DNA of 27,167 nt. Source: Candidatus Bathyarchaeia archaeon (GTDB taxonomy: Archaea; Thermoproteota; CALKCG01; B24). The notes under the pieces are model-generated. The model did no database searches. It was not told the DNA's origin and saw only the letters and a program-made list of their open reading frames with translations. Each line of letters begins with the position of its first letter. Position 1 is the first letter of the stretch. The stretch is from positions 1 to 27,167 of the forward strand of contig JAWCKO010000002.1 of assembly GCA_038851915.1 (NCBI GenBank), in the 5' to 3' direction. Shown in pieces: positions 2,547 through 5,105 of the stretch. The position numbers and the translations under genes were made by a program.

Positions 2547-3914
2547 ATGGAGTCCTCCTACGACCTAGTAGTAGTAGGTGCTGGGACAGGTGGATGTCTA
2601 GCTGCGAAAACAGCTGCGGAAAACGGTTTAAACGTCTGCCTTGTAGAATCTAAATCTGCTGAAAACATTGGGCTTAAAGCTTGTGGAGACGCCGTTGGTA
2701 AACATCATTTTGACAATATAGGATTGGCATATCCTACTGGTTCAGAACTCTGCTGGGAACTTGAAGGTGTTAAAGTATTCTCGCCGGATTTTGAAACATC
2801 TTTTAGAATAATGGGTTTAGGTGCTAAAGCCTTCATGGTCAATAGACGTGAATTCGGAAGAAGACTTGTTAAAGAGGCTTTAGACACGGGTATAGAGCTT
2901 ATAGATAAAACTACAGTCCTAGAGCCAATAATTGAAAACAACTATGTAGTAGCTGTTAAAGTTAGAGGCAGTGTTTTCAGTGGAGTTTTAAGGGGGAAGA
3001 TTTTCATAGATGCGTCCGGTGTATCCGCAGTCCTCAGGAGGAATGCTCCCACGGTTCCAGGGTTTGAAAGGACAGTAGACAAAGAAGAACTTGAAATAGC
3101 GTATAGAGAGATCAGAGTTTTGGAGAATGAGATTGATGATAAAACTTTTGGTTCCATATACTTAAGCCAGGAGTATGCTCCTGGAGGATACTTCTGGTTA
3201 TTTCCTAAAGGTTTAAACACAGTCAACATAGGGTTGGGTGTTCAATTCTCAAGGGCAAAAATGGAAATTAAAAACTACTTCACACGGTTTATAGAGGAGA
3301 AACTTCCATGGCTTAATAAGGCTAAGACTCTGGATGGAAGAGGGGCATTCGTCCCAACAAGGAGGCCGCTGGATAATATGGTTTCGAACGGTTTAATAGT
3401 CGTAGGTGATGCCGCTTGCCAAGTCAATCCGATCCACGGTGGAGGAATAGGGCCGTCCATGACGGCTGGTAAGCTTGCTGGTGAAACCGCTGTGAAAGCT
3501 TTAGAGAAGGACGATTTAAGCTATGGAGGTCTTTGGGATTATAACGTAGCATACATGAGAGGCTACGGTGCTAAACAAGCATCTCTAGACGTTTTCAGAG
3601 TTTTTCTCCAGAATATTTCGGACGATGAATTAAACTACGGTATAAGTCGAAAGTTGATAGCTGAAGAAGATGTTTTAAAAACCAGTCTATACGGCGAAGT
3701 TAAACTTACGATAACAGATAAGGCCTTAAGATTTCTCCGCTCAGTAGGTAAACTTAATTTCGTTTCGAGACTTAGAAAAGTGTCTGAATTAATGAAAACG
3801 GTTAAAGCACACTATCAAAGTTTTCCGAAGAATCCTAATGACTTTCCGAAGTGGTTGAAGGTGACGAGAAAATTGGTCGAGGAGTATGAGATAGTTGGTA
3901 TGGGAAATGTTTAA
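2547..3914 (+). CDS. Geranylgeranyl reductase family (digeranylgeranylglycerophospholipid reductase)
   Basis: VVVGAGTGG FAD motif, KACGDAV, YFWLFPKG (YxWxFP) and VGDAACQVNPIHGGGI. Confidence 0.88.
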   Translation: MESSYDLVVVGAGTGGCLAAKTAAENGLNVCLVESKSAENIGLKACGDAVGKHHFDNIGLAYPTGSELCWELEGVKVFSPDFETSFRIMGLGAKAFMVNRREFGRRLVKEALDTGIELIDKTTVLEPIIENNYVVAVKVRGSVFSGVLRGKIFIDASGVSAVLRRNAPTVPGFERTVDKEELEIAYREIRVLENEIDDKTFGSIYLSQEYAPGGYFWLFPKGLNTVNIGLGVQFSRAKMEIKNYFTRFIEEKLPWLNKAKTLDGRGAFVPTRRPLDNMVSNGLIVVGDAACQVNPIHGGGIGPSMTAGKLAGETAVKALEKDDLSYGGLWDYNVAYMRGYGAKQASLDVFRVFLQNISDDELNYGISRKLIAEEDVLKTSLYGEVKLTITDKALRFLRSVGKLNFVSRLRKVSELMKTVKAHYQSFPKNPNDFPKWLKVTRKLVEEYEIVGMGNV

Positions 3915-3947
3915 CAATTCACGTGAACTGTAAAATACAGTGGAAAC

Positions 3948-4672
3948 ATGTCCTCTGAAGAATTTAAAATAGAAAAAGAGAGGCTCATAGAGATATACGT
4001 TAGAGAAGGAATTCTAAAGGCAAACTCAGTCATAGAGGCGTTTAGAAGAGTTCCGAGGGAGAACTTCATACCCGAATACTTGAGGGCATATGCTTATGTC
4101 GATACCCCACTACCCATAGGCTATGGTCAAACAATATCCGCACCACACTTCTAGCTGAATGGCTAGAAGGGTGAAACATGGTTTGCATAATGAATGAAGT
4201 GCTCGAACTCGAAACAGGTTTAAAAGTGTTAGAGGTTGGAGCTGGCTCAGGCTATCACGCATGTACAATAGCTGAAATAGTCGCCCCGTCGGATGTACCC
4301 AGAGAGAAATGGGGTCACGTCTGGACAATTGAGATAGTATTCGAGCTCTATAAAATGGCTGAAGAAAACGTACGTAGAAACGGTTATTCGGATAGAGTTA
4401 CGGTTATACATGGAGATGGGTCCTTAGGCTGTCCTGAAAACGCCCCCTACGACCGCATTCTAGTTACAGCTGCAGCTCCAGAAATTCCAGACACGCTTAT
4501 CGAGCAGCTTAAAATAGGTGGGCTAATAGTTACACCTATTGGAGCACCTGGTGGATTTCAAGAGCTGGTCAAAGCATACAAACGAAGCGGCGGATCCATT
4601 GAAACAGTAAATCTGGGAGGTGTAGCATTCGTACCTTTAAGGGGCAGAAAAGGCTGGAGAGGATGGTGGTAA
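3948..4672 (+). CDS. pcm: Protein-L-isoaspartate O-methyltransferase, interrupted by an intron: join(3948..4146,4176..4672), 231 aa after splicing
   Basis: Exon 1 encodes VPRENF...[15 protein letters not shown]. Exon 2 encodes [32 protein letters not shown] and FVPL. Removing 29 nt joins them as [10 protein letters not shown], matching the family consensus. Confidence 0.92.
4147..4175 (+). other. Putative bulge-helix-bulge (BHB) archaeal intron, 29 nt, in pcm mRNA
   Basis: Central 4-bp helix CACC(4141-4144)/GGTG(4170-4173), 3-nt bulges ACA(4145-4147) and AAA(4174-4176), inner 8-bp stem CTTCTAGC/GCTAGAAG with a 6-nt loop. Cutting after the second nucleotide of each bulge restores the reading frame. 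Confidence 0.85.
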
Positions 4673-5105
4673 AATCTCCCACGTTAGAGAGTTTATAGTA
4701 GCCAGAGGACATCCAAATATAACGGCTGAACATAAAACTACGTTTGAGATTACTAAAGACCCGTATGTAACGCCTAGGGGGGATTGCATAATAGCCGTTT
4801 CAGCGTCGAAAGCGGTTTGCGATTTAAGCTGGGAATTTAAACAGCTTCTTAAAAGCGAGGCTTCGCTCGTAAACTTTAAACTTGAAGTAGGACCATTTAC
4901 ATGGACGGTTAAGGGATACGGGTCTGAGAAGATGATTCTAACAGATGTAAAATCTATGGTTTTCAGAAGAACTCAGTACATATGTCCTAGAACAGTCATG
5001 ATTAAGGCGGATTCGTCAGCCTCCAGTCTACCTAGAGAAATTCTACCGCTTTTAAAAAATCCAGATACAGTCTTACGCATAACTCTTAAGGTATTTAGAG
5101 AGTAA
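4663..5105 (+). CDS. DUF371 family protein (start uncertain; absent from the ORF track)
   Basis: Open frame ending at TAA 5103-5105 encodes VREFIVARGHPNITAEHKTTFEITKDPYVTPRGDCIIAV. There is no in-frame ATG/GTG/TTG before this motif. ATG 4663 is out of frame and ATC 4674 is in frame. Confidence 0.8.

Follow-up and report, generated by a model that had tools for sequence, protein, structure and literature searches.

A very probable bulge-helix-bulge intron in the coding sequence of the archaeal pcm gene

The pcm gene of a hot-spring Bathyarchaeia-like archaeon is interrupted within its coding sequence by 29 nucleotides that have the make-up of an archaeal bulge-helix-bulge (BHB) intron. We consider it very probable that this stretch (4147-4175) is cut from the mRNA by the tRNA-splicing enzymes of the host, because an insert resembling a tRNA intron has been kept, with compensating changes, in dozens of related genomes. 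The window analysed here (27,167 nucleotides) is contig 2 of a metagenome-assembled genome of 1.37 Mb in 209 contigs, estimated to be 72.6% complete. The public genomes nearest to it come from hot springs and bear the label Candidatus Bathyarchaeota or Bathyarchaeia, and its class is represented by only 17 species in the genome collection.

As annotated from the letters, pcm occupies two open reading frames on the forward strand (3948-4154 and 4178-4672) that differ in frame. The first closes at a TAG (4152-4154) lying inside the insert, in the frame of exon 1, and the second opens at ATG 4178. An earlier note on this DNA had proposed that the cut rule for tRNA introns removes exactly the 29 nucleotides and joins the codons CCA CAC ATG (Pro-His-Met) into an enzyme of 231 residues, and this was confirmed. 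The joined protein is matched by PF01135 in a single stretch (E = 7e-63, profile positions 3-209 of 210), above the cut-off, and scores 219.6 bits against NCBIfam NF001453 (cut-off 188) and 200.7 bits against TIGR00080 (cut-off 159). By these curated family cut-offs, the predicted product is a complete protein-L-isoaspartate O-methyltransferase (PIMT). The other particulars read by the earlier note, namely the insert, its TAG, the frameshift, the stems and the bulges, also stand in the sequence in every detail. The exons in the window are free of other damage, no second pcm copy was found in the window genome or its genus, and no Rfam family matched within 3800-4800. Just 3' of pcm lies a DUF371 gene (4641-5105, forward strand) in which the full Pfam domain is matched from 4683 (E = 6.5e-47); it has no in-frame ATG, GTG or TTG between the upstream stop (4638-4640) and 4932.

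Table 1. Positions in the window of the pcm exons, the predicted intron and the elements of its BHB motif
Feature	Position	Strand	Remarks
pcm exon 1	3948..4146	+	66 codons plus C4146, the first base of the split His codon; ORF 3948-4154
Exon 1 product			PIMT residues 1-68 matched
Outer exon-exon helix, 5' side	4128..4140	+	4128-4135 plus closing G4140; 4136-4139 unpaired
Central 4-bp helix H, 5' strand CACC	4141..4144	+	Exon; Ala and Pro codons; pairs with 4170-4173
5' bulge ACA	4145..4147	+	Predicted cut 4146/4147; unpaired in minimum-free-energy fold
Predicted 29-nt BHB intron	4147..4175	+	Sequence, fold and same-site inserts in 52 distinct loci
Inner stem h', 5' arm	4148..4156	+	9 bp in minimum-free-energy fold
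Inner stem h', 3' arm	4161..4169	+	Minimum-free-energy fold, covariation
Central helix H, 3' strand GGTG	4170..4173	+	Intron; fold and conservation
3' bulge AAA	4174..4176	+	Predicted cut 4175/4176
pcm exon 2	4176..4672	+	AC of the His codon, 164 codons from ATG 4178, stop codon; ORF 4178-4672
Outer helix, 3' side	4177..4185	+	Closing C4177 plus 4178-4185 (Met-Val-Cys codons)

The unconstrained minimum-free-energy fold of positions 4120-4195 contains the 4-bp helix, the 3-nt 5' bulge, an inner stem of 9 bp and part of the outer helix, at an energy of -21.9 kcal/mol (z = -2.9; two of 200 shuffled sequences fold as well). The inner stem comprises 8 perfect pairs (4148-4155/4162-4169), a U.G pair bringing it to nine in the fold. 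The window pcm presents the features that define a BHB, a 4-bp central helix and two 3-nt bulges on opposite strands, and its helix, bulge and stem strands follow one another in the order of a pre-tRNA BHB. The outer helix (4128-4135/4178-4185) is paired at seven of eight positions, and G4140 and C4177 are able to close the motif. This single G-C pair, which is absent from the minimum-free-energy fold, makes for a weak helix beside the 3' bulge. Because helix h is reduced to a single invariant G-C pair, beyond which come an asymmetry of 4 nt and the imperfect exon-exon helix, the predicted motif is a relaxed BHB, of the kind accepted by (alpha-beta)2 enzymes. A reading of the hairpin as a transcription terminator was rejected for want of a U-tract.

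The host appears equipped to process such a motif. Two proteins of the tRNA_int_endo family are encoded in the window genome, by minus-strand ORFs at L075:444-1001 and L076:1459-2007. One of them, the alpha subunit, matches the catalytic subunit of the Aeropyrum pernix enzyme (1e-44); Tyr, His and Lys are all retained in it, and part of it aligns with the crenarchaeal loop. The other, a paralog, has lost the His, as have structural beta subunits. Their sequences identify the predicted enzyme as a crenarchaeal-type, broad-specificity (alpha-beta)2 endonuclease, a form that cuts relaxed motifs as well as the cbf5 mRNA (PMC5829648, PMC10485636). The genome thus encodes an endonuclease for relaxed motifs, and an RNA ligase is supplied by the evidence of its close relatives: RtcB was not found in the window's own 72.6%-complete assembly and is present in all five of the genus and family relatives. 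In two of these genomes (G003 and G004) rtcB lies ~3.5 kb upstream of pcm, a place taken in the window assembly by genes for an MFS transporter and a cytidylyltransferase. The RtcB of two congeners (G001:C1:62226-65000 and G003:C46:40697-43471) is a single open frame of ~1000 aa in which an insertion of ~1.4 kb, as large as an intein, separates model positions 50 and 49. The two-bulge cut rule was also applied to the organism's own tRNA-Tyr (48-nt intron) and tRNA-Leu-GAG (22-nt intron), and in both cases it gave an intron-less tRNA that ARAGORN accepts. In the assembly as a whole, ARAGORN placed introns in eight of 26 tRNA genes; two of the calls (184 nt and 1999 nt) are apparently spurious.

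Relatives carry the interruption at the same place. Following a protein search for pcm in 40 related genomes, from which the junctions were cut out, the gene was found in two adjacent pieces in all seven other genomes of the window's own family (f1), in all five from families f2 and f3, which belong to the order of f1, and in three more from other families. These 15 loci have inserts of 23-34 nt at the same codon, with the BHB arrangement in every one; in a further 15, among them the loci of the sister family f4, the His codon at this site is an unbroken CAY. A DNA pattern made of the exon flanks and the 3' strand of helix H matched 35 of 401 genomes of the phylum, and the reversed pattern used as a control matched none. 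A second, unbiased sample, again protein-based, covered 41 genera of family f15; here the insert is present in 28 of 38 genomes with pcm, and the motif in 19 of the 19 junctions fetched. The combined set holds 52 distinct intron-bearing and 27 intron-less junctions, the former spread over at least nine families with inserts of 23, 29, 30, 31, 32 or 34 nt. The earlier note had named a comparison with relatives, and degraded geometry in them or an assembly artefact as grounds for abandoning the intron; on both counts the idea came through, with same-codon inserts, intact geometry in every case retrieved and compensatory changes. The insert is real rather than an artefact of assembly, because independent Logan contigs of three other runs and more than 50 other genomes carry it. 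One relative also has a second, divergent pcm-like gene (~42% identity; G008:C9:19302-20024), likewise in two pieces with a TGA between them.

The predicted structure is supported by compensatory changes in the inner stem and in helix H. Part of the 52 loci were collected by the DNA pattern, in which the exon flanks and the 3' strand of helix H are fixed; this bias spares only the inner stem and the subsets gathered by protein search. Helix H, the closing pair (G-C throughout, G4140-C4177 in the window) and both 3-nt bulges are kept in 52 of 52 loci. The first, third and fourth pairs of the helix are C-G, and the second is A-U in 11 loci, G-C in 40 and G.U in one, with no mismatch. The Ala codon carries the A-U/G-C switch at its third, synonymous base, and the opposite intron base changes along with it; on the pcm tree this has occurred at least three times in separate lineages, namely in family f1, in family f23 and at one locus (L101) of family f15. 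The 5' bulge reads ACA in 44 loci, TCT in five and ACT in three, always 3 nt, and the 3' bulge reads A-N-A throughout, its outer As having been fixed by the search pattern for part of the loci. In the inner stem, which formed part of no search pattern, the first five pairs are made in 98.1% of cells over the 52 loci, and 3-7 types of pair occur at each position; over 2000 shuffles the paired fraction was 69.3% (maximum 76.5%). Nineteen different 5-nt arms occur among the first 35 loci, and sliding the partner by 1-2 bases reduces pairing to 18-63% in that set. Outer pairing averages 6.8 of nine positions in intron-bearing genes and 5.35 in intron-less ones; covariation in this helix is weak and largely dictated by the amino-acid sequence, and we discarded it as evidence.

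Excision by the two-bulge cuts would restore the reading frame and the His codon in all 52 loci, whichever the length class of the insert modulo 3 (10, 22 and 20 loci). Read unspliced, 36 loci run into a stop in the insert itself and the other 16 no more than 38 codons past it. All 52 intron-bearing loci have CAC as the joined codon, its AC having been fixed by the pattern for part of them, and intron-less genes have CAC (15) or CAT (10). Among intron-bearing genes, exon 1 has a median dN/dS of 0.12 and exon 2 one of 0.06, values that point to strong purifying selection on both exons. Within the genus, where dS is ~0.6-1.3, the intron stem changes to wobble pairs only and the loops vary freely. 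In runs X5 and X6, a 97%-identical strain shows 24 differences over 801 positions, none of them in the 128 nt around the intron (window 4086-4213), where ~4 would be expected; this difference-free stretch is suggestive only.

These observations also bear on the one serious rival, a split gene whose 68-aa N-terminal and 164-aa C-terminal fragments (the latter from ATG 4178) are translated apart and assemble, the hairpin acting as a translational coupling or stability element. Exon 2 does start exactly with an ATG and is called as an open reading frame by gene callers, in the genus a GGTGA resembling a Shine-Dalgarno sequence stands 4-8 nt upstream of it, and selection on both parts would be predicted equally. 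Yet in most lineages that upstream element is GGCG, a poor Shine-Dalgarno sequence, and its changes follow those of the Ala codon in the manner of a base pair. The C before and the AC after the insert, needless if nothing is excised, are kept in 15 of 15 loci of the first protein-based sample. The exact spacing of 3-nt bulge, 4-bp helix and 3-nt bulge is likewise maintained over insert lengths from 23 to 34 nt, and the break falls within the substrate-binding motif. We regard a split gene as unlikely.

Cutting of the motif with no rejoining, as a trigger of mRNA decay or a shut-off switch, is very unlikely in our view. An archaeal endonuclease would be expected to cut any accessible BHB, and decay initiated by TSEN with no ligation has been described for yeast mRNAs (PMC10485636). 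Such a fate would leave no full PIMT, however, yet the exons are strongly selected in their own frames with no second copy found, and frame and His codon are restored in all loci. Translational recoding, in which the ribosome would skip the 29 nt or shift frame across them on the model of phage T4 gene 60, seems still more improbable. The stable hairpin and the stop codon just past the break do recall gene 60, but the sequence offers no pair of matching take-off and landing codons by which the frame would be restored (a landing on CAU 4177-4179 would depart from the ATG frame), lineages with the TCT bulge have no His codon at the take-off site, and the stretch to be skipped ranges in length from 23 to 34 nt. 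An artefact of sequencing or assembly, or a pseudogene in decay, might be suspected in a 73%-complete metagenome-assembled genome of 209 contigs, and annotation pipelines would call pcm broken; this reading is scarcely credible given the undamaged exons, the dN/dS of 0.06-0.12 and the presence of the insert in more than 50 genomes and in independent contigs from other runs.

Reads and contigs from public runs were also searched. The one true RNA run (X13) contained no reads of the organism, and the spliced junction specific to family f1 was absent from the metagenome contigs scanned. Runs X5 and X6 are labelled metatranscriptomic; they are probably DNA, since they yield contigs of 5-14 kb in which the insert is included.

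For BHB splicing of pcm, we propose the following course, in which cleavage, ligation and the fate of the intron are inferred from sequence. One pre-mRNA would be transcribed from the whole gene. Exon and intron bases would fold into the 4-bp helix between two 3-nt bulges, set on the 9-bp intron hairpin and closed by the exon-exon helix. The (alpha-beta)2 tRNA-splicing endonuclease of the host would then cut after the second base of each bulge, and an RtcB-type ligase would join the exons, completing the His codon (C|AC) of the SAPHM motif and with it the frame of the 231-aa enzyme. The 29-nt intron would be set free, probably in circular form. Any regulation of PIMT production by way of this splicing is speculation.

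As to the history of the intron, a maximum-likelihood pcm tree groups 34 of the 35 intron-bearing genes in a single clade (support 95/91). The exception is the gene with the 23-nt insert (L029), which sits outside the main clade on a long branch. Nested inside the intron-bearing clade lies the intron-less family f4, the sister group of families f1-f3; since intron-bearing genes are over-represented in the tree, the number of losses is not countable from it. Members of f4 (G010, G013, G015 and G016; loci L009-L011) have no pcm intron and a CAT His codon, and keep two other coding-sequence inserts, in cbf5 and in a radical-SAM gene. Because those inserts are still in place, a clean loss specific to pcm is the simplest reading of this family and is what the tree suggests. 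A single gain of the pcm intron is probable, in an ancestor shared by a large Bathyarchaeia-like group, with a clean loss in one family or more.

Both of these other inserts are present in the window genome. Its cbf5 (L077; G000:C50:2028-5783, minus strand) has a 17-nt insert at ~2240-2290, in the codon of the catalytic Asp (GTL-D-P). Its fold has an exon-exon helix of 8 bp and a 4-bp helix CUCU/GGAG, and the 3' bulge reads ACA (z = -2.7). Most of 41 related genomes, drawn from many families, show a break in the same place (near position 70 of the CBF5 model), a range reaching well past the Desulfurococcales and Sulfolobales named in print. The radical-SAM gene is a second paralog of AmmeMemoRadiSam type (L137; G000:C22:8387-9447, minus strand; pieces 1-831 and 864-1061). 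Its 29-nt insert forms a clean BHB (helix AGAG/CUCU, bulges AAA and AGA, 8-bp stem), and the joined protein is matched by TIGR04337 in a single stretch across the break, above the cut-off (E = 1.4e-74). The split recurs in families f1, f2 and f4, and an intact paralog lies on contig C13. When the whole genome was scanned for BHB motifs by which open frames would be merged, 580 raw hits resulted, most of them neighbouring genes. Eight candidates were tested against Pfam, and the radical-SAM paralog alone held besides pcm and cbf5; hits on C4, C75, C149 and C134 were rejected as gene boundaries or as unsupported. Two of the three inserts, those of pcm and cbf5, lie inside an active-site motif. 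It is conceivable, and we offer it as a tentative idea only, that tRNA-endonuclease splicing of protein-coding mRNAs is routine in this Bathyarchaeia-like group, with at least three conserved introns in this one 1.4-Mb genome retained for a reason. As part of that same tentative reading, the output of repair and RNA-modification enzymes might be tied to splicing capacity, or the introns might be relics of a mobile element that targeted conserved sites.

Among known systems, the nearest is the cbf5 pre-mRNA intron of Crenarchaeota, whose splicing has been shown experimentally (Watanabe 2002; Yokobori 2009, PMC2738675). Both introns are short, lie in coding sequence within an active-site motif and form a relaxed BHB from exon and intron bases; in both cases the host endonuclease is of the (alpha-beta)2 form, excision restores the frame, and the tree suggests a gain followed by clean, lineage-specific loss. 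They differ in host gene and in host group (Bathyarchaeia-like for pcm), and splicing is experimental for cbf5 whereas for pcm we infer it from sequence. The pcm motif has a canonical 5' site and a weak outer helix, and the cbf5 of the window genome shows the reverse. The pcm intron works like the cbf5 intron, but it is not a member of the cbf5-intron family because its host gene is pcm. The BHB intron of HVO_1309 in Haloferax volcanii (Schwarz 2020, PMC7714728) resembles it in being an mRNA substrate of the tRNA-splicing endonuclease; unlike the pcm intron, it lies in a 5' UTR, is met by an alpha2 host enzyme and has no reading frame to restore.

Archaeal pre-tRNA introns of the hBHBh' and relaxed HBh' forms share with the pcm insert the 4-bp helix, the 3-nt bulges, the cut positions and a similar size range. 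In pcm, by contrast, the host molecule is an mRNA, and the exon parts of the motif also encode Ala-Pro-His-Met. The splicing of HAC1/XBP1 by IRE1 and tRNA ligase or RtcB offers a more distant parallel: it too is spliceosome-independent, with cuts at stem-loops in a coding region, exons joined by a tRNA ligase and a change of frame, but its nuclease, IRE1, is unrelated and its splicing is stress-regulated.

Reviews name cbf5 as the only case in a coding sequence and HVO_1309 as the case in a 5' UTR (PMC2738675, PMC7714728, PMC10485636), and the 2023 review expects that further archaeal cases are probably still to be found (PMC10485636). Whether pcm introns had been reported before was a question the earlier note had to leave aside; our full-text literature search found no paper linking an isoaspartate methyltransferase to an archaeal intron, and no report of mRNA introns in Bathyarchaeia.

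The splicing of archaeal coding sequence by tRNA endonuclease is thus in print for one gene, cbf5, and pcm would be the second gene family. With a second family, backed by covariation and found in many lineages, the mechanism would be general and not a single exception. The pcm introns furthermore make a clean comparative system for intron gain and loss. They also expose an annotation error: because the public protein sets of close relatives hold only the exon-2 fragment of pcm, of 160-164 aa, PIMT would score as truncated or missing in metabolic reconstructions of Bathyarchaeia.
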